Assembly (NCBI GenBank): GCA_035561835.1
Contig: DATMXF010000229.1
Coordinates: 1 to 24,161 of the forward strand
From: Patescibacteria group bacterium
GTDB lineage: Bacteria; Methylomirabilota; Methylomirabilia; Methylomirabilales; Methylomirabilaceae
Direction of reading: 5' to 3'
Length of the DNA: 24,161 bases
Below are positions 8,801 to 18,502 of this stretch, in pieces. How positions within the stretch are numbered: the first letter of the stretch is position 1; every line of letters starts with the position of its first letter. The position numbers and the translations under genes are program-made. The notes beneath the pieces were generated by a model. That model had not been told where the DNA came from. It did no database searches and saw only the letters and a program-made list of their open reading frames with translations.

Positions 8801-9328
8801 CTACTTAAAAGCATAGTTTATGTAGACGTGGTACGCCATGAGCAGCAACAACGCCATAGATAATCCGACATGGGCGCTGATCCACACCGGTCTGTACCAG
8901 GGCTTGTGGATTTTCACGATTTGAAAATTGAACAAGCCGGTGAGGAAGGCCAGCAACAACGTCAGGCTGAGGATTTCGAGATAGCCGTATCCCAAGGTTT
9001 GGGAATGGCCAAAGAAAAATAACAGAAGCAGAGCGCCGAAAAGTTTGTGGCGACCCATCATGGTTGCGGTATTGCGCTGCTCCCCCTGAGCGCGCTTCAC
9101 GGAAAAACGCCATTGATAAAGAACAAACGCAAACAATCCGAAGCCTGTGGCGAGTTTATACGTGCTGTCGCCTTGCAGTCCGGTCAATAAGGTCCACTGC
9201 CACCCAATCGATTGCTGGACAATCAAAGCCACCAGCAGGAACAGACCCAGCCAAAAATACCCTTTGGCGGGTACACCGGACTTCAGGCCGTCCGGAAGCA
9301 ACGATTTAAGTCGGTTGAAGCCTTGCAT
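8801..9328 (-). CDS. Integral membrane protein, candidate di-heme b-type cytochrome (two H-x13-H helices)
   Basis: I trimmed the track ORF (8801-9571) to the ATG at 9328 because the 5' extension overlaps the upstream gene. About 5 hydrophobic helices. HKLFGALLLLFFFGH and HVGLSMALLLLMAYH each place two His residues 14 positions apart. Confidence 0.55.
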   Translation of the reverse strand: MQGFNRLKSLLPDGLKSGVPAKGYFWLGLFLLVALIVQQSIGWQWTLLTGLQGDSTYKLATGFGLFAFVLYQWRFSVKRAQGEQRNTATMMGRHKLFGALLLLFFFGHSQTLGYGYLEILSLTLLLAFLTGLFNFQIVKIHKPWYRPVWISAHVGLSMALLLLMAYHVYINYAFK

Positions 9329-9341
9329 AAAGACCAAGCTT

Positions 9342-10211
9342 TTAACGGGCAATGACAAGGGCACCTCCTTCTTTGTTCGCTGCTGATCCAGGTCTTGGCT
9401 TGCTCGCCAGTGAGCTGAGCACCGCCAAGGTGTGCGGGGCTGTGCGCTTGGCGATTTCCCCCATGAACACCTCGGAGCTCGGTAAGAAATACCCCTCAGC
9501 CGGCCAGTGTTCGCCAATGGCGGGGGGATTGGCAAATTTCTGCGCCTTTTCAAGATAAGACTCGTAGGCATCCTTGAAGCCTTGGCGTAAGGCGGCGAGC
9601 GTGCGGAGTAACTCGTCCATGGACACGCTGCCGCTTGGATACATCCACGTGGTCGCGCCCATCACATCATTGAGCTTCCAGTCGTGCTTGGGTGATTGTT
9701 CGTGCTTGTTATGGCATTGGATGCAGCCCTCGACGACCGCCACATCGCTGAACATGGCGACCTGCATTTGAATGTCGGGCATGAAGAAGAATTGCGGCTT
9801 GAGGGTTTGCTTGACTACCTGGAATTTTTCCAATTGCAACCCCTCGAAGCGGTTCGCCGAGTTGACGGGATAGTCAGAACCCAGGAACAGACTGAGCGGC
9901 GTCGGATTCTTTTCCAGACTTTTCGCCGTCTCGCGCAGGAACAACGCCGGCAATGGGCCGGCCTCCACGTCCGCCTCGCGCCAACGCTCGTCGAACTTCA
10001 AACCGGTCTGCTTGCCCGCACCGACCACTTCCTTGGTCCACATCGCTCGAACTACGTCGTTTTCCGCCTTGAGAATCTCAAACATCCGCTCCACCGGGAT
10101 AGCCGCATCGGCAGCCTTCTTCTCTTCCAATGGCGGCGGGGCACTGACAAGCAGGTAGATGCTTAAGGCGCCCAGCGCCAGGCCGGCGATCCAGAAGTTT
10201 TGCTTAGCCAT
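9342..10211 (-). CDS. Membrane-anchored monoheme c protein, DUF3365 (Tll0287-like) domain plus C-terminal extension
   Basis: Start taken at MAKQNFWIAGLALGAL (ATG 10211; ATG 10220 is also possible), overlapping the upstream stop. There is a single CIQCH. The pattern GPLPALFLRE...VNSANRFEGLQLEKF...CIQCH...WKLNDVMGATTWMYP resembles DUF3365 heme-c sensor-like domains. Confidence 0.6.
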   Translation of the reverse strand: MAKQNFWIAGLALGALSIYLLVSAPPPLEEKKAADAAIPVERMFEILKAENDVVRAMWTKEVVGAGKQTGLKFDERWREADVEAGPLPALFLRETAKSLEKNPTPLSLFLGSDYPVNSANRFEGLQLEKFQVVKQTLKPQFFFMPDIQMQVAMFSDVAVVEGCIQCHNKHEQSPKHDWKLNDVMGATTWMYPSGSVSMDELLRTLAALRQGFKDAYESYLEKAQKFANPPAIGEHWPAEGYFLPSSEVFMGEIAKRTAPHTLAVLSSLASKPRPGSAANKEGGALVIAR

Positions 10212-10899
10212 CTTGACCATCCTGTTTTGCTTTGTAGTGGAGAGTTGTGCCGTAAGGAGAGGGCCCGCCATCAAAATAGGCGCGGATTTTCTCTGTCGGC
10301 GTTCGCTTGCCGACCGATTTCTCGGTCTGCATAATGTGGTTGCCGTGGAAGTCGTGGCAGCCCAGGCAGGAGTCCCATTGCTTGTGGGCTATCAAGTCCG
10401 CATGGGGCACATCGATGGGATCGTTCTTTAACCGGGTGTCCTTGTGGCAGTTCACGCAATAGTCTGTCTTCGCCAACGTGACACGCCTCCCCCGGTGTTC
10501 GGCGTGGCAGGAGACGCACTGATGGGGGCCCAACGTTTCCCGAACCTGGCTGAAACGGGGTTCGAGGAAGCGGTAGACCGGGTGGCGGTCGTTGGGCCGC
10601 TCGTGACAGGCCATGCAGTCCGTATTACCCACAGGGAGCCGTCCGAAGGCGGCGGGCGCTTCGCGCCACCCAAAGGCATAGCGCAGGTTGGCCTGAATCT
10701 GCTGGCGGAAGCTGCCCGGTGCGTTTTTGTGGCAAGCCACGCAGGCAAGCTTGCCGTGGCCTGTATTCATAGGTCCTTTAGCATGAAACCATTCCCCGAC
10801 TGGAAGCACGGTAAACACCAGGATCGCAAGTCCCAAACAGAAGCCGATCGCATAGGCGCGGTTTTGCCATTTCCTTGACCCTTCAGCTTTCGCTCTCAT
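10204..10899 (-). CDS. Membrane-anchored pentaheme c-type cytochrome (NapC/NirT/NrfH-like topology)
   Basis: It has five CxxCH motifs (CVACH, CMACH, CVSCH, CVNCH, CLGCH) and an N-terminal TM helix (AYAIGFCLGLAILVFTVLPV). The first ATG is at 10899; the track start at 10908 is a TTG. Confidence 0.75.
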   Translation of the reverse strand: MRAKAEGSRKWQNRAYAIGFCLGLAILVFTVLPVGEWFHAKGPMNTGHGKLACVACHKNAPGSFRQQIQANLRYAFGWREAPAAFGRLPVGNTDCMACHERPNDRHPVYRFLEPRFSQVRETLGPHQCVSCHAEHRGRRVTLAKTDYCVNCHKDTRLKNDPIDVPHADLIAHKQWDSCLGCHDFHGNHIMQTEKSVGKRTPTEKIRAYFDGGPSPYGTTLHYKAKQDGQDG

Positions 10900-11018
10900 A
10901 GCCACCAACTCAAGCTACGTGCCAAAAACTCACGCTGATGCATTAGGCCTTATTGTGTCTGCTGTGTAGCTTACCGGTGGCGAAAATGAAGCGTCTGCTT
11001 ATCCTCTGAATGGAGAGA

Positions 11019-12192: not shown

Positions 12193-12238
12193 CAAAACGA
12201 TACCTCCCAGCCAGCGCTACCACTGACTGGGAGGTATC
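12193..12238 (-). terminator. Rho-independent-type terminator after qNOR-like paralog 1
   Basis: On the minus strand, GATACCTCCCAG (12238-12227) pairs with CTGGGAGGTATC (12210-12199), 12 bp perfect with a 16-nt loop. GTTTTGT follows. Confidence 0.6.
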
Positions 12239-12274
12239 AGAACGAAGTGTGATGTGCCTACCTAGATCCTCAGA

Positions 12275-14701
12275 TTAGAAGGCCTCGTCGCCGGCAGCCC
12301 AAGTCTCCCGCTCCTTCGCCTTCTCCTTGTCGTAGATGGTCCATTCACCTTCCTCGACAACAGAGGCTTCGCGGACCATCCGCCCTGCTCTTGACAGAAT
12401 GAAATAGGCGAGAGGCAACACGCCGCCAAAGAGGAAGATCGCGCCGCCGATCGTGCGCATCCACGTCAAGGTGATCCACACGCTATCCGTGACGTGCGCC
12501 TGTGCTCGGGCAGCCCAAAGTCCTTGCTTGAAGACGGTCGAAACCTGGTACAGACCGACAGGGAACAGGTCCAACATCATCATCAGCACCAGGCCGACCT
12601 GCAACGACCAGAAGATCCCCTTGATCAGCTTCTCATTCCAGGCAGAGCGCTGGAACAGGTGCTGGCAGGCAAACAGCATACCGGCGATGGCGATGTTACC
12701 CTTGACGCCGAACATGGCGGCATGGGCATGGTTGCCGGTAAGATAGGTGCCGTGCTCATAGTAGTTGACGATGGGCAGGTTGATCAACGAGCCGAAGACG
12801 CCCGCGCCAAAGATGTTCCAGAAGTTGACGGCGAGGATGAACGTCCAGACGCCGTCCATCACGAAGCGCTGCTTGCCCTCGGCAATGTTTTCATGGGCCT
12901 TCGACCGCTCCGTCCGCATCTTCCAGGCGTCCAGGGTGATCAACAGCAGCGGCAGCACCTGCATGGTGGAGAAGACGCTACCCAGTGCGATGATTCCTGT
13001 CGGCTTGGCGATCCAGTAGAAGTTGTGGGAGATGCCGATCAGGGCGGTCACCAGGAACATCATGACGGCCAGGAAGATAACCCGCTCGGCCATCGCCCGG
13101 TTGACCAGACCCATCTGCACCAGCATGTACCCAACGATACAGGTGGTGAAGACCTCGAAGGTCACCTCAACCCACATATGAATGTTCATCCACCGCCAGT
13201 AGTCCGCGATGGCGAAGTTCTGCGACGGGGTCATGAACATCCCGAAGAACAGGAACAGCACCATGATCCCGCTGCCGTAGAACAGCCAAGCCGGCACCGA
13301 CCAGAGGTTCTGGCTGGTGATCCAGGGCTTTACGGCGCGGAAGATGATGTAGACCCACAGACAGAACGATGCCAGCATCAGGATGTGCCAGAAGCGGCCG
13401 AGCTCCAGGAACTCCCACCCTTGGCTGCCGAACCAGTAGGCCATGTCGTCGCTAAAGAACCCTGTGTGGCCGAGGTAAATGCCAAACAGCGCGCCGGCGC
13501 CTACGATAAGACACAGCGTAAAGAGCAGGTTGATCAGGAACCGCTGCCCGTTGGGCACCTTCGAAATGCGGGGCAGGAAGAAGAGGGTGTAGCCGACCCA
13601 CGCCATAAAGAACCAGTAAATCTGGACGATGGTATGCCAGCCCCGGGTGACGGTAAAGGGGATAGTAAACCCTAACACTGTTGTAGCGAGGGCGCTACCC
13701 GGTCCACCACCGACGAAATCTTCGGCGCTCAGGATACCTGCCAGGACCTGGACCAGGAACAGGATGACAGCGAAGGCAAAGAACTTATAGGTGGCACGCT
13801 GTGTCGGTCGCACGTAAGCGTCGCCCTTGTTTTCCAGGTCGACCGTGGTGAGCGACCAATCCCGCCCATTGAACGGCTCGCCGGGCAGGGCCTTCATTTC
13901 GCCGTACACGTACAGGACCAGCATGGTACCGCAGAACAGCACAAAGATCGAGATAAAGCTCCAGAGATAGGTCTCAAACGTCGGGGTATTCCCGACTATC
14001 GGGTCGGGCGGCCAGTTGTGAGTGTAGGTATAGTCGAAACCCGGCCGATTCGCCCCGGACACCCAGCCTCCCCAGAAGAAATAGCCTGCTAGGGCCTTGA
14101 GATCTGCTGTGTTGCTGATATGATTTTCGATCCTCCCTTTCATGAAGGCTTCTTCATAGGTGGCATCCGTAAACATCCGGGTGTAGTGCGTGATCAACTC
14201 CTGATACGCAAAGACCTGAGCCGGATTGATACGGATGATGTTGGCAGCCGCATCATACCCGTTCTCATGGATTTCGCGCCTGACCCTGACCGAGATCATA
14301 TCACGGTCGGCTTGAGTGACAGGACGCTCCTTCGCGATCTCATTTTCGTAGAACTTGCTCATCGATACATAGGTATGGTGTAGCGCTTCAGCGGTGAAAT
14401 CCGGTCCGCGCTCACCACCGTCGCCCCAGAAAGAGCCATACGTCATCAGGCCCTTCAAGTGAAAGATCTGTTTTCCACGCTGGATCTCCCATTCGGGGAT
14501 GACGGTTTCTCCAGTGGTTGACAACACATAATTGGTCAATGGCGGAGCTGAGGTATAAGTCCAGACGCCCAAGGCAACCAAACCAATAACGCTGATAACG
14601 GTAACGATCAGGGCATGAAGCCACCAATACTTCTTGATCAGCAATGCTTGCCCGAATGTCCTATTAGTTTTCCCCATACCGCCGCTTGCAGTAGATTTCA
14701 T
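12275..14701 (-). CDS. nod: qNOR-family heme-copper oxidase, paralog 1 (808 aa), with putative nitric oxide dismutase (Nod)-type substitutions
   Basis: GGAGGTAACAATG is the start context. The architecture is qNOR-like: one N-terminal TM helix, a heme-free periplasmic domain, then a NorB-like core. Retained motifs: RGWH, NIHMWVEV, NHAHAAMFG. Altered motifs: SHNFYW instead of an HH pair (AAC at 13022-13024), SVFSTMQVLPL with Q instead of E (CAG at 12959-12961), and AEDFVGGGPG where qNORs have AHYxxE. Confidence 0.9.
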   Translation of the reverse strand: MKSTASGGMGKTNRTFGQALLIKKYWWLHALIVTVISVIGLVALGVWTYTSAPPLTNYVLSTTGETVIPEWEIQRGKQIFHLKGLMTYGSFWGDGGERGPDFTAEALHHTYVSMSKFYENEIAKERPVTQADRDMISVRVRREIHENGYDAAANIIRINPAQVFAYQELITHYTRMFTDATYEEAFMKGRIENHISNTADLKALAGYFFWGGWVSGANRPGFDYTYTHNWPPDPIVGNTPTFETYLWSFISIFVLFCGTMLVLYVYGEMKALPGEPFNGRDWSLTTVDLENKGDAYVRPTQRATYKFFAFAVILFLVQVLAGILSAEDFVGGGPGSALATTVLGFTIPFTVTRGWHTIVQIYWFFMAWVGYTLFFLPRISKVPNGQRFLINLLFTLCLIVGAGALFGIYLGHTGFFSDDMAYWFGSQGWEFLELGRFWHILMLASFCLWVYIIFRAVKPWITSQNLWSVPAWLFYGSGIMVLFLFFGMFMTPSQNFAIADYWRWMNIHMWVEVTFEVFTTCIVGYMLVQMGLVNRAMAERVIFLAVMMFLVTALIGISHNFYWIAKPTGIIALGSVFSTMQVLPLLLITLDAWKMRTERSKAHENIAEGKQRFVMDGVWTFILAVNFWNIFGAGVFGSLINLPIVNYYEHGTYLTGNHAHAAMFGVKGNIAIAGMLFACQHLFQRSAWNEKLIKGIFWSLQVGLVLMMMLDLFPVGLYQVSTVFKQGLWAARAQAHVTDSVWITLTWMRTIGGAIFLFGGVLPLAYFILSRAGRMVREASVVEEGEWTIYDKEKAKERETWAAGDEAF

Positions 14702-14760
14702 TGTTACCTCCTATGGCCACACCCATGACTTGGGTCGCCACATGTTCCTTTCACTACTTA

Positions 14761-14925
14761 CTACTCCTTACAATCTTGCCATCTTGGTACCGTTATCGCC
14801 CAAGGCCTCGGGGGCGCACGCACTTCCTGGTCAGCAAAAGGCAGACCGCCGCTTTGCCACCGGAAGCCTGGCCGACCACACGGTAACCCTTTGCTCAGCT
14901 TATCGACCCACGTCATAAGTTTCAT
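14761..14925 (-). CDS. Candidate 54-codon upstream ORF / leader peptide of paralog 1 (low confidence)
   Basis: GGAGGA lies 9 nt upstream of the ATG at 14925, and the stop is TAG at 14761-14763. The peptide is MKLMTWVDKLSKGLPCGRPGFRWQSGGLPFADQEVRAPPRPWAITVPRWQDCKE. It is partly conserved, in frame, with a counterpart upstream of paralog 2. Confidence 0.25.
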   Translation of the reverse strand: MKLMTWVDKLSKGLPCGRPGFRWQSGGLPFADQEVRAPPRPWAITVPRWQDCKE

Positions 14926-14993
14926 GAGGCACGTTCCTCCTTGCTTTCAAGGTCATCAGCTTACAGTCAAAGCGTAGGCTCTCCAGCAGGGCC

Positions 14994-15036
14994 TGTAAAT
15001 CAGATGATCAACTTAATTTTCAATGCAAATGCATTA
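14994..15036 (-). promoter_or_regulatory. Conserved upstream element of paralog 1 (TTTACA -35-like hexamer plus ATGCA-AA-TGCAT dyad)
   Basis: The plus-strand sequence GTAAATCAGATGATCAACTTAATTTTCAATGCAAATGCATTAG is related to the two repeats upstream of paralog 2. It contains a 14-bp perfect palindrome, AATGCAAATGCATT (15022-15035). Confidence 0.35.
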
Positions 15037-15207
15037 GTCGTCCAGGAGGATTACCCGGCCGGTGAACATTTTTCACGCTTGCCGGCCTTAGAGACGGCTA
15101 CTCACTGCCAGAGACAGAACGCCCCGGGCGTCTGCCCGCGGGGCCGAAGTTCTTCTTCATCTTTTTGAGTAACCGATAAACTGCGCCAGAGCACCATCGT
15201 TCGTTAT

Positions 15208-15496: not shown

Positions 15497-17932
15497 CTAG
15501 AAGGCCTCATCAGAAGCGGCCCAAGCCTCTCGCTCCTTCGCCTTCTCTCTGTCGTAGATCGTCCACTCGCCCTCTTCAACAACGGCAGCTTCGCGGACCA
15601 TCCGTCCAGCCCTCGACAGAATGAACCAACACAGAGGCACAACACCACCGAAGAGGAAGATCGCGCCGCCGATTGACCGAAGCCAAGTCAGCGTGTGCCA
15701 TACCTCGTTGGTGACGAACGACTGCTGGCGGCCATACCAGAACCCATACTGGAAGATGTGGGCGAGCTGATACAGACCAACCGGGAACATATCCATGAGC
15801 ATCATCATCACGATGCCGGCCTGCAGGGACCAGAAGACAGTCTTGATCAGCTTCTCATTCCAGGCAGAGCGCTGGAACAGGTGCTGGCAGGCAAACAGCA
15901 TACCGGCGATGGCGATGTTACCCTTGACGCCGAACATGGCGCCATGGGCATGGTTGTTGGTGAGATAGGTGCCGTGCTCATAGTAGTTGACGATGGGCAG
16001 GTTGATCAACGAGCCCATGACGCCGGCACCGAAGATGTTCCAGAAGTTGACGGCGAGGATGAACGTCCAGACGCCGTCCATCACGAAGCGCTGCTTGCCC
16101 TCAGAAAGGTGCTCATGGGCCTTGGTCCGCTCCGTCCGCATCTTCCAGGCATCCAGGGTGATCAACAGCAGCGGCAGCACCTGCATGGTGGAGAAGACGC
16201 TACCCAGTGCGATGATTCCTGTCGGCTTGGCGATCCAGTAGAAGTTGTGGGAGATCCCGATCAGGGCGGTCACCAGGAACATCATGACGGCCAGGAAGAT
16301 AACCCGCTCGGCCATGGCCCGGTTGACCAGACCCATCTGCACCAGCATGTACCCAACGATACAGGTAGTGAAGACCTCGAAGGTGACCTCAACCCACATA
16401 TGGATGTTCATCCACCGCCAGTAGTCGGAGATGGCGAAGTTCTGTGACGGGGTCATGAACATCCCAAAGAACAGGAACAGCACCATGATCCCGCTGCCGT
16501 AGAACAGCCAAGCCGGTACCGACCAGAGGTTCTGGCTGGTGATCCAGGGCTTGACGGCGCGGAAGATGATGTAGACCCACAGACAGAACGAGGACAGCAT
16601 CAGGATGTGCCAGAAGCGGCCCAGCTCCAGGAACTCCCAGCCCTGGCTGCCGAACCAGTAGGCCATGTCGTCGGTCAGCATACCGGTGTGGCCGGCATAA
16701 ATCCCAAACAGCGCACCGGCGCCGACGAGCACGCACAGCGCAAAGAGCAGGTTGATCAGGAACCGCTGCCCGCTTGGTACCTTCGAAATTCGGGGCAGGA
16801 AGAAGAGGGTGTAGCCGACCCAGGCCATGAAGAACCAGTAGATCTGGACGATAGCATGATAGCTTCGGACGACGCTGAAGGGGATGACGAGTCCGAACGC
16901 GCCCAAGATCGTTTCACCAGGTCCACCGCCGACGAAATCCTCGGCGCCCAGGATACCGGCCAGTACCTGCACCAGGAACAGGATGACAGCGAAGGCAAAG
17001 AACTTATAGGTGGCGCGCTGGGTCGGTCGAACGTAGGCATCGCCCTTGTTTTCAAGGTCGACCGTGGTGAGCGACCAATCGCGCCCGTTGAACGGCTCGC
17101 CGGGCAGGGACTTCATTTCGCCGTAGACGTACAGGACCAGCATGGTGCCAGCGAACAGCACGAGGATCGAGAGGAAGCTCCAGATGTACGTCGCGTACGT
17201 CGGGAGGTTGCCGGCGTCAGGATCATACGGCCAGTTATGGGTATAGCTGTAGATCTCGCCCGGTCGATTCGCGCCGGCTACCCAGCCGCCCCAGAAGAAG
17301 TAACCCGCCAATCCCTTGATGTCCTCCGGGTTGCTGATGTAGCTCTTGATCCGACCCTTCTGGAATGCCTCTTCATAGGTGGGATCGGTGAACATCTTAG
17401 TGTAATGATCGACCAATTCATTATATGCAAAGATCTGGGCGTCGTTCAGGCGGATGACGCCTGCGGCTGCGTCATAACCGTTCTGATGAATCTCTCGCTT
17501 GACCTTTCCCGCGATCCCGTCCTTCTCGTCCTGGGTTGCGGGGCGGCCCTGCTCTTTCTCGATCTGCATCTCATAGTGCTTGCCCATGGAGACGAAGGTT
17601 CGATGCAGAGCTTCTGCGGTGAAATCCGGTCCGCGCTCTGCGCCGTCACCCCAGAAGGATCCGTAGAGCATCAGACCCTTCAGATGAAACACCTGCTTTC
17701 CACGATTCATGGAATACTCAGGAATAACGACTTCCCCGCTCTTCGCCGATACGAAATTAACCAGAGGGGGAGCGCCGGCGTAGGTCCAGACGCCAAGCGC
17801 AATCAATCCGATAACGCTGATTGCAGTGACGATCAAAGCATGAAGCCACCAATACTTCTTGATGAGTAGTACTTGTGCAAATGTCCTCTCGTTCTTGCCC
17901 TTTGCCGCAGTTCCGCTGGGATTCGGACTCAT
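15497..17932 (-). CDS. nod: qNOR-family heme-copper oxidase, paralog 2 (811 aa from ATG 17932), with putative nitric oxide dismutase (Nod)-type substitutions
   Basis: I moved the start from the track's 17971 to the ATG at 17932, which has the same GGAGGTAACAATG context as paralog 1. It has the same motif set: RSYH, NIHMWVEV, NHAHGAMFG, SHNFYW (AAC at 16244-16246), SVFSTMQVLPL (CAG at 16181-16183) and AEDFVGGGPG (16916-16948). Confidence 0.9.
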   Translation of the reverse strand: MSPNPSGTAAKGKNERTFAQVLLIKKYWWLHALIVTAISVIGLIALGVWTYAGAPPLVNFVSAKSGEVVIPEYSMNRGKQVFHLKGLMLYGSFWGDGAERGPDFTAEALHRTFVSMGKHYEMQIEKEQGRPATQDEKDGIAGKVKREIHQNGYDAAAGVIRLNDAQIFAYNELVDHYTKMFTDPTYEEAFQKGRIKSYISNPEDIKGLAGYFFWGGWVAGANRPGEIYSYTHNWPYDPDAGNLPTYATYIWSFLSILVLFAGTMLVLYVYGEMKSLPGEPFNGRDWSLTTVDLENKGDAYVRPTQRATYKFFAFAVILFLVQVLAGILGAEDFVGGGPGETILGAFGLVIPFSVVRSYHAIVQIYWFFMAWVGYTLFFLPRISKVPSGQRFLINLLFALCVLVGAGALFGIYAGHTGMLTDDMAYWFGSQGWEFLELGRFWHILMLSSFCLWVYIIFRAVKPWITSQNLWSVPAWLFYGSGIMVLFLFFGMFMTPSQNFAISDYWRWMNIHMWVEVTFEVFTTCIVGYMLVQMGLVNRAMAERVIFLAVMMFLVTALIGISHNFYWIAKPTGIIALGSVFSTMQVLPLLLITLDAWKMRTERTKAHEHLSEGKQRFVMDGVWTFILAVNFWNIFGAGVMGSLINLPIVNYYEHGTYLTNNHAHGAMFGVKGNIAIAGMLFACQHLFQRSAWNEKLIKTVFWSLQAGIVMMMLMDMFPVGLYQLAHIFQYGFWYGRQQSFVTNEVWHTLTWLRSIGGAIFLFGGVVPLCWFILSRAGRMVREAAVVEEGEWTIYDREKAKEREAWAASDEAF

Positions 17933-17954
17933 TGTTACCTCCCGTGGCTCGACC

Positions 17955-18134
17955 TCATTTGAGGTGACCACCTTGCATTGTTATTACCGTGCCGTCTTGA
18001 GTTGGGATGATCCCATCCACCGGGGGCGCACGCGCTTCGCGAACAGTCCGCAGAGCGCGGGTGAGACGGCAACCGCCTGTTCGAACAGGCGGTGCCCCGC
18101 TACACTGCTTATCGATTCTCATCATACGGTCCAT
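17955..18134 (-). CDS. Candidate 59-codon upstream ORF / leader peptide of paralog 2 (low confidence)
   Basis: GAGGAGG lies 8 nt upstream of the ATG at 18134, and the stop is TGA at 17955-17957. The peptide is MDRMMRIDKQCSGAPPVRTGGCRLTRALRTVREARAPPVDGIIPTQDGTVITMQGGHLK. It shares M1, M4, I/V7-D8-K9, G13, P15, R18, G20 and E-x-RAPP with the paralog 1 uORF. Confidence 0.25.
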   Translation of the reverse strand: MDRMMRIDKQCSGAPPVRTGGCRLTRALRTVREARAPPVDGIIPTQDGTVITMQGGHLK

Positions 18135-18180
18135 GGGGAACGCCTCCTCTGCGCCAATCTTGCGATCCCCTGTAGGCTTT

Positions 18181-18290
18181 GTAAATCCTGCGAATGAATC
18201 AATCCGCGATGCATATGTACTATACTATTTACTATGCTCTGTGAGACTCGTAAATCCTGCGATTGACTCAATATGGTGATGCATATGCAC
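18181..18290. promoter_or_regulatory. Two ~40-nt direct repeats (69-nt period) upstream of paralog 2, carrying short dyads
   Basis: Repeat 1 is 18181-18220, GTAAATCCTGCGAATGAATCAATCCGCGATGCATATGTAC. Repeat 2 is 18250-18290, GTAAATCCTGCGATTGACTCAATATGGTGATGCATATGCAC. Dyads: ATTGACTCAAT (18262-18272) and TGCATATGCA (18280-18289). Confidence 0.45.
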
Positions 18291-18502
18291 CACTCGCTGA
18301 GGTCTTAGCCAAGATCCGGAGACTCGATGAGGACAAAACATATCAAACAGTGTTTATTCGGTCACGCGGTAATCCAACGATCTGGTGGTCGGTCCATGGC
18401 ATGGCGCTTACCAAAACTACGTTCTCCAGAACAGCATTATGATCCACAGAAGAACTGATCCTTACTATACTATATTTGAATGAATCGTTTCGTCCGCGCC
18501 TA

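Follow-up and report, generated by a model that had tools for sequence, protein, structure and literature searches.

The stretch of DNA analyzed here (hereafter the window: 24,161 nt, positions 1 to 24,161 of contig DATMXF010000229.1 in assembly GCA_035561835.1, from a bacterium of the Methylomirabilaceae) carries two nod genes arranged in direct tandem on the minus strand, as established from their open reading frames and translations. Comparison of the two copies along their length and across six genomes of the genus strongly supports repeated, lineage-specific gene conversion of the nod core between the tandem copies. Nod is a candidate enzyme for dark oxygen production from nitric oxide (NO), and Methylomirabilis keeps two highly expressed nod copies. 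The two genes are as follows:

12275..14701, minus strand: nod copy A, an open reading frame of 808 amino acids (aa), ortholog of Methylomirabilis oxyfera NOD1 (DAMO_2434), a qNor-like putative NO dismutase.
15497..17932, minus strand: nod copy B, 811 aa from the ATG at 17932, ortholog of NOD2 (DAMO_2437).

The offset between the copies is 3222 nt at the stops and 3231 nt at the starts, as given in the initial annotation of this DNA, and the start of copy B at ATG 17932 is backed by a GGAGGTAACAATG ribosome-binding context common to both copies. Both proteins matched the Pfam families PF22085 (NorB_cytochrome_c-like, E 1e-43) and PF00115 (COX1, E 1e-48) and showed the qNor architecture, with an N-terminal transmembrane helix (TM1), a periplasmic domain lacking haem c and a fused NorB/COX1 core, together with a full-length match to the qNOR structure 3AYF (E 5.7e-128). 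In the alignment of copy A with 3AYF, H328 and D746 of the structure, which we take to be the residues that bind quinol in qNOR, correspond to E327 and G753, respectively, and are not conserved in copy A. In the same alignment SHNFYW is found against GHHYYY, so that N560 takes the place of the second His in the qNOR “HH” pair (H560N), and TMQVLPL against SALEVIPL, so that the catalytic-site Glu is Q581 (E581Q). The Nod signature has been described as the replacement of a His ligand of the non-haem metal by Asn (HH to HN) and of the catalytic-site Glu by Gln (Ettwig et al. 2012, PMC3413370). The M. oxyfera pair NOD1/NOD2 (DAMO_2434/DAMO_2437), for which the activity 2 NO to N2 + O2 is termed putative (PMC3413370, PMC6094997), has been described as a pair of closely similar paralogs with high expression, in accounts that make no mention of mosaic identity or gene conversion (Ettwig et al. 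2012, PMC3413370; Versantvoort et al. 2018, PMC6094997). The genes of the window resemble that pair in their tandem arrangement, qNor-like architecture, His-to-Asn and Glu-to-Gln changes and aa identity between copies (about 83–84%), and differ from it in coming from a different, closely related genome; judged by sequence, they represent the tandem NOD1/NOD2 pair (DAMO_2434/2437-type) of qNor-like putative NO dismutases in a Methylomirabilis metagenome-assembled genome (MAG). In the window genome (G000), an assembly 81% complete in 267 contigs, these are the only nod copies, accompanied by a canonical qNor of 35% identity. The closest relative in the genome set is G005, a single contig of 2,752,854 bp, whose downstream copy shares 97% aa identity with copy A.

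Identity between the two copies was found to be a mosaic, with the following parts:

12620..13450, minus strand: most homogenized core of copy A, residues 418–694, 96.0% identical to 15842–16672.
12620..12719, minus strand: identical block of 100 nt (equal to 15842–15941), codons 661–694, whose edge at 12720 is the A661G difference.
12930..13033, minus strand: identical block of 104 nt (equal to 16152–16255), codons 557–591, which holds N560 and Q581.
12593..13984, minus strand: conversion-affected zone of copy A, codons ~240–703, delimited by maximum chi-square breakpoints and sliding pS (the proportion of synonymous differences).
15815..17203, minus strand: conversion-affected zone of copy B, partner of 12593–13984 in the same alignment.
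12275..12592, minus strand: diverged C-terminal part of copy A, codons 704–808, with pS 0.5–0.7 and a tree split by paralog.
13985..14701, minus strand: diverged N-terminal part of copy A (TM1 and periplasmic domain), with pS 0.6–0.9, grouping by paralog.

The initial annotation had estimated by hand about 35 mismatches over ~830 nt (95–96% identity) for 12620–13450 versus 15842–16672; the count was 33 mismatches in 831 nt (96.0%), with exact runs of 104, 100, 71, 59, 53, 50 and 50 nt, and the complete identity (100/100) of 12620–12719 with 15842–15941 was reproduced. Translation of the interval gave residues 418–694, including H508 (in HMWVE), H559/N560 (in SHNFYW), Q581 and the block N657-H658-A659-H660, in agreement with its description as coding for the catalytic helices. 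The interval thus stands as the most homogenized core, but silent divergence is lowered over a wider zone than had been proposed, codons ~240–703 (~12593–13984). In a codon alignment of A with B (Nei-Gojobori), pS was 0.6–0.9, that is saturated, for codons 1–260, 0.25–0.45 for codons 260–440, 0.03–0.25 for codons 420–700 and 0.5–0.7 for codons 700–808, in keeping with the much greater divergence claimed for the N-terminal domain and the last codons and far from the uniform silent divergence that would have spoken against a mosaic. This was further confirmed when only four-fold degenerate third positions were used, in codons for the same amino acid in both copies: identity at these sites was 33% (saturated) in the N-terminus, 71% in codons 263–445, 90% in codons 446–704, where most silent sites are indeed identical as first described, and 43% in the C-terminus (chi-square p for heterogeneity over the four regions, 1.5e-16). 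The best two-breakpoint split fell at alignment columns 244 and 707 with a maximum chi-square of 72.9, a value reached by none of 200 permutations, the highest of which gave 16.1.

The analysis was extended to other genomes by a family search, which located a complete tandem pair in six genomes (G000, G001, G002, G005, G006 and G011) and one full copy in G012; nod copies were not found in other genera among the 201 sampled genomes of the phylum. The mosaic recurs in all six two-copy genomes with tract positions that vary by genome. Exact A/B runs of 160, 248, 316 and 100 nt were present in G005, which is M. oxyfera-like, and a run of 230 nt in G006, and G002 is homogenized also at the extreme C-terminus. 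Separate core and flank trees over the genus, a check that had been proposed with the initial annotation, showed flanks grouping by paralog and a core that does not. Specifically, the N-terminal tree (codons 15–240) placed A and B copies in separate clades (support 83/81) and the C-terminal tree (codons 712–808) gave an A/B split with support 100/99, the latter value starred, whereas the trees of the mid and core segments showed no split by paralog, and in the tree of codons 442–600 the A/B pairs of G002, G005 and G006 were sisters with starred support. In approximately unbiased (AU) tests, monophyly of the A copies was rejected in the core (delta lnL 84, p-AU 0.003), and a clade of G000 A with G000 B was rejected in the N-terminus (p 2e-90) and in the C-terminus (p 3e-5). 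Quartet-informative sites, summed over all genome pairs, were distributed as follows:

N-terminus: 991 sites by paralog, 249 by genome.
Codons 323–352: 174 sites by paralog, 35 by genome.
Codons 442–530: 29 sites by paralog, 109 by genome.
Codons 531–600: 2 sites by paralog, 136 by genome.
C-terminus: 561 sites by paralog, 76 by genome.

The site table revealed runs of silent changes common to both copies of one genome and missing from the orthologs. Private derived states common to both copies were counted at 1, 7, 3, 4, 9 and 13 core sites in the six genomes, and in the four closest genomes such states were almost lacking from the flanks. Over codons 662–694, the within-genome A–B differences were 0, 0, 4, 0, 0 and 4, compared with a between-genome mean of ~6. 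A Sawyer-type run test on silent polymorphic sites, again of a kind suggested at the outset, gave pairwise P ≤ 0.001 in four of the six genomes; pairwise values were used because the experiment-wide P is uninformative, its maximum being dominated by the near-identical orthologs G000_B and G005_B. Since the flanks split by paralog, the duplication predates the radiation of the genus, and since the core groups by genome, conversion events took place after speciation. The initial annotation had proposed either gene conversion of the core or constraint at the codon level; the genome-specific silent changes carried by both copies are not producible by constraint alone and therefore support the former, and constraint on its own fails.

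Homogenization of the core is not complete, and a few replacement differences persist in it. Three features resist conversion:

12719..12721, minus strand: codon 661, GCC (Ala) in A and GGC (Gly) in B at 15941–15943, adjoining the NHAH haem-ligand motif.
13205..13207, minus strand: codon 499, Ala in A and Ser in B (16427–16429), nine residues before H508, fixed in six genomes.
13646..13696, minus strand: paralog-specific island, codons 336–352 with a one-codon indel, partner at ~16868–16915, inside the conversion zone.

Codon 661 is Ala in all A copies and in 14 outgroup nod homologues and Gly in all six B copies, the NHAHAAMFG motif showing no variation among these outgroup homologues (14 of 14) or the A copies; the 100-nt identical block begins exactly at this codon, of which 12720 is the second base. 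At codon 499, which is the sole difference in 565 nt in G005, that genome has GCC versus TCC, with the third base homogenized and the first base not, and the other A copies have GCG or GCA. In the homogenized core only codons 499 and 661 are fixed between A and B across all six genomes, both as replacements, and further replacement differences survive inside the homogenized zone at codons 605–606 and at codon 636. The island is indicated by a peak of pS and of pN (the corresponding proportion of replacement differences) at columns 321–380 and by fixed A/B differences at codons 336–352. More generally, fixed A/B amino-acid differences cluster in the N-terminal domain, in this 17-codon island and in codons 706–765, with ~20 fixed replacements in codons 700–749, and it is plausible from this concentration of fixed replacements that the periphery has specialized. 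When the converted zone was compared over five genomes, the ratio of replacement to silent changes was 6 to 1 for differences fixed between A and B and 33 to 99 for non-fixed variable sites (Fisher p 0.002), and in codons 241–441 the corresponding ratios were 16:0 and 65:123, although this fixed-versus-variable test treats related genomes as independent and its P values overstate that independence. Survival of replacements where adjacent silent sites have been erased would follow if neutral differences are wiped out by conversion and convertants without their copy-specific residues are lost to selection. This pattern in the codons suggests that selection acts against full homogenization of NOD1 and NOD2.

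The events may be pictured as follows. One tandem duplication of the whole nod transcription unit (leader, gene and ~20 nt of trailer) would have occurred in the Methylomirabilis stem lineage, prior to the split of the sampled species. Interlocus gene conversion, a non-reciprocal homologous recombination presumably of the RecA type, would then have acted between direct repeats 3.2 kb apart, so that parts of one copy were repeatedly overwritten by the other, independently in each lineage. Tracts are limited to the protein-conserved membrane core (codons ~240–703, most strongly codons 440–700), which may keep enough nucleotide identity to start recombination. The ancient paralog split is kept in the N-terminal periplasmic domain, the island at codons 336–352 and the last ~105 codons, these being either too diverged or protected by selection, and selection may also keep NOD1 distinct from NOD2 at A661G, A499S, codons 605–606 and codon 636.

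Several observations weigh against conversion as the full or recent cause of the core identity, in addition to the non-independence of genomes in the fixed-versus-variable test. All genomes but one are metagenome assemblies. In the tree of codons 442–600, the A/B pairs of G000, G001 and G011 were not resolved as sisters. The window genome itself has only one private derived site common to both copies (codon 569), so that much of its core identity may go back to conversion events in the ancestor it shares with G005; the two genomes are close (pS of neighboring genes 0.10–0.46), and the A and B cores of G000 differ by 1–2%, about the same as G000 versus G005 in that region. A large part of the core identity of the window therefore probably results from conversions around or before the G000–G005 split rather than from recent ones; a more recent event is seen in G005, with 1 difference in 525 nt over codons 427–601. 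In addition, pS between orthologs in the core (about 0.05–0.35) is around half that of neighboring genes (0.3–0.65, same genome pairs), which together with a core GC content at third codon positions (GC3) of 0.87–0.93 indicates that some silent-site constraint or biased conversion acts too.

This last point leads to the view that there was no conversion and that strong nucleotide or codon constraint (through translational selection, RNA structure or an antisense element) kept silent sites undiverged after an old duplication, which we consider extremely unlikely. The GC3 profile fits it: values were 0.55–0.75 in the N-terminus, 0.72–0.86 in the middle, 0.87–0.93 in the core and 0.70–0.81 in the C-terminus, and windows of 159 codons with GC3 ≥ 0.89 belong to the top 0.4% of the window genome, alongside EF-Tu-like genes. 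The lowered core pS between orthologs fits as well, as does a lesser rise of GC3 over this region in related genes, the difference in GC3 between core and N-terminus being 0.24 in the pair, 0.11 in 14 single-copy nod homologues and ~0.08 in the qNor paralog. Constraint, however, cannot give genome-private silent changes in both copies, and such sites occur in every genome, with 136 by-genome versus 2 by-paralog sites in codons 531–600; nor does it account for silent sites that vary between genomes inside blocks identical within genomes, or for tract positions that vary among genomes. The window had no Rfam family match, so that the identity at silent sites is not attributable to a known structured RNA. 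GC3 also tracks conversion intensity, and its hump (12593–13984 and 15815–17203) could reflect either GC-biased gene conversion or translational/codon selection.

Another possibility is that a short-read metagenome assembler collapsed or swapped reads between copies or strains and so made false identical blocks. The window genome is an incomplete MAG in many contigs, and many related MAGs break inside these genes, but the longest exact repeat is 104 nt, the contig spans both copies, and 33 core differences remain. Swap-type “cross” quartet sites were nearly absent from the core (0–1 per G000 comparison), and the mosaic, with genome-specific details, was found in six independent assemblies including the closed 2.75-Mb genome, all six of which reproduce the copy-specific replacements at codons 499 and 661, making an artifact very unlikely. 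It is equally hard to credit a recent duplication after which the periphery of one copy was replaced from a distant nod allele, giving foreign N- and C-termini. Between-lineage mosaicism does exist, the first ~426 codons of copy A differing by ~10% between G000 and G005 and the rest by ~3%. Against this, each copy has both of its flanks in paralog clades in which all genomes are represented with similar internal topology, so that the A/B split predates the species, and the grouping of the core by genome needs post-speciation events. The proposal was excluded by rooting with 14 outgroups (nod homologues from other phyla): A and B together formed one clade in the N-terminus (support 99, starred), in the core (99, starred) and in the C-terminus (92), and therefore no part was imported. 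Gene conversion between the tandem copies is accordingly retained as the reading of the mosaic.

With the core continually homogenized by conversion, whole-gene identity (~84%) says little about the age or function of the two copies. The informative A/B differences are those of the flanks and the few conversion-resistant residues, which provide a short list for mutagenesis and structural work. It is conceivable, though we rate it as rather unlikely, that the surviving core differences (Gly661 of NOD2, A499S, codons 605–606 and 636, and the 336–352 island) mark functionally non-redundant active-site positions, that NOD1 and NOD2 differ in their haem environment or partner site or form a heteromer, and that the excess GC3 is a footprint of GC-biased conversion. 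If this were true, NOD1 and NOD2 would not be redundant isoenzymes and the homogenized core would amount to a natural screen.

The extent of the duplicated unit could be followed beyond the coding regions into the following elements:

14702..15120, minus strand: leader/promoter region of copy A, 73% column identity to 17933–18351, with conserved blocks.
12198..12239, minus strand: terminator hairpin after copy A, at the end of the A/B similarity.

A leader of ~430 nt upstream of each gene is alignable between A and B, and the duplicated unit is therefore the whole transcription unit. Continuation of the similarity past the stop codons, already remarked in the initial annotation, was found for ~20 nt, with a common GATCTAGGT (equal to ACCTAGATC on the plus strand), and ends at two unrelated hairpins. 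The conserved blocks of the leaders (14702–15120 and 17933–18351) include a TGCAT-N-TGCAT-like dyad, GATTTACA and the identical GGAGGTAACAATG start context. The leaders also hold a short upstream frame, in which a conserved GCGTGCGCCCCCG block codes for Arg-Ala-Pro-Pro.

Concerted evolution of duplicated prokaryotic genes is, as a process, already well known, with tufA/tufB of enterobacteria as one case. Other examples are the duplicated mtrA genes of methanogens (PMC4632066) and the rRNA operons of E. coli (PMC8022953). The nod pair resembles the mtrA, rRNA and tuf cases in that within-genome paralogs are closer than orthologs over part of their length, silent sites are homogenized and tracts are lineage specific. 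Unlike in those cases, homogenization of nod is partial and sharply bounded within one gene, the tract preserves single replacement sites and a 17-codon island, and the flanks keep the pre-speciation split. In the literature searched, no paper was found in which gene conversion, concerted evolution or recombination of these genes is connected with nod or Methylomirabilis, and gene conversion in nod appears to be unreported there.

These results bear on the use of nod as a marker. Nod sequences of NC10 bacteria have been placed in DAMO_2434 and DAMO_2437 subclades, and both M. limnetica nod copies were found to cluster together, with no cause given (Zhu et al. 2019, PMC6636425). The sequences of the standard marker primers for nod, nod684Fv2 and nod1706Rv2 (taken from PMC6636425), locate the amplicons as follows:

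13002..14027, minus strand: nod684Fv2/nod1706Rv2 amplicon of copy A, exact primer matches at 14010–14027 and 13002–13022, almost wholly inside the conversion zone.
16224..17246, minus strand: nod684Fv2/nod1706Rv2 amplicon of copy B, primer matches at 17229–17246 and 16224–16244.

In a tree of the amplicon region, the two G002 copies were sisters, like the two copies of M. limnetica, which also group together (PMC6636425), and the A copies were unresolved; the AU test did not reject monophyly of the B copies (p-AU 0.136). Conversion has blurred the amplicon without scrambling it fully. We attribute the published co-clustering (PMC6636425) to conversion inside the amplified region. With nearly the whole amplicon inside the converted zone, the DAMO_2434/DAMO_2437 subclades and amplicon-based diversity counts can be distorted, as with M. 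limnetica. A related effect concerns assembly: in seven fragmented MAGs of the genus (L011–L016, L022–L025, L029, L030), 13 contig ends fall within nod genes, all at codons 286–597, which is what near-identical repeats would produce. In this genus, short-read MAGs are prone to break within nod genes, and nod copy number and completeness are therefore easily misjudged.

In addition to the A/B mosaic, a second layer of mosaicism was observed between lineages. Between G000 and G005, the A copies diverge by ~10% over the first ~426 codons (13420–14701) and by ~3% after that, and divergence of the B copies is ~3% along the whole gene, codons 25–75 excepted. This mosaicism in the A-copy lineage suggests allelic recombination between Methylomirabilis lineages. 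The A-type copy of G012, on a 2789-nt contig (L009/L038), has A-like N- and C-termini and is of B type over codons ~325–661, including the 336–352 island, S499 and G661; it is either a very long B-to-A conversion or a chimeric assembly (MAG contamination 8%). Downstream of the nod pair, a three-gene haem module (8801–10908) is as close to G011 (L036; pS 0.10–0.25) as to G005 (L033), and the flanking genes for NadE and a PAS-LuxR regulator are much further from G011 (pS 0.43–0.45), so interspecies recombination may have occurred in the haem module.

Some further features of the genes and their relatives were recorded. Opposite the nod genes, antisense open frames of 250–420 aa are present on the plus strand at 12494–13675, 15695–16447 and 16607–17869; they coincide with a very high GC3 in the sense frame, and most likely they are not genes but a consequence of composition. 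Full-length nod-like homologues (58–73% aa identity; L039–L117) were found in MAGs labeled as Acidobacteria, Myxococcota, Gammaproteobacteria, Planctomycetota, Binatia and others, and the 14 outgroup homologues that were aligned carry the His-Asn motif as well as the NHAHAAMFG motif. One Acidobacteria MAG, MEKU01, has two nod-like copies located on different contigs (L040 and L043).

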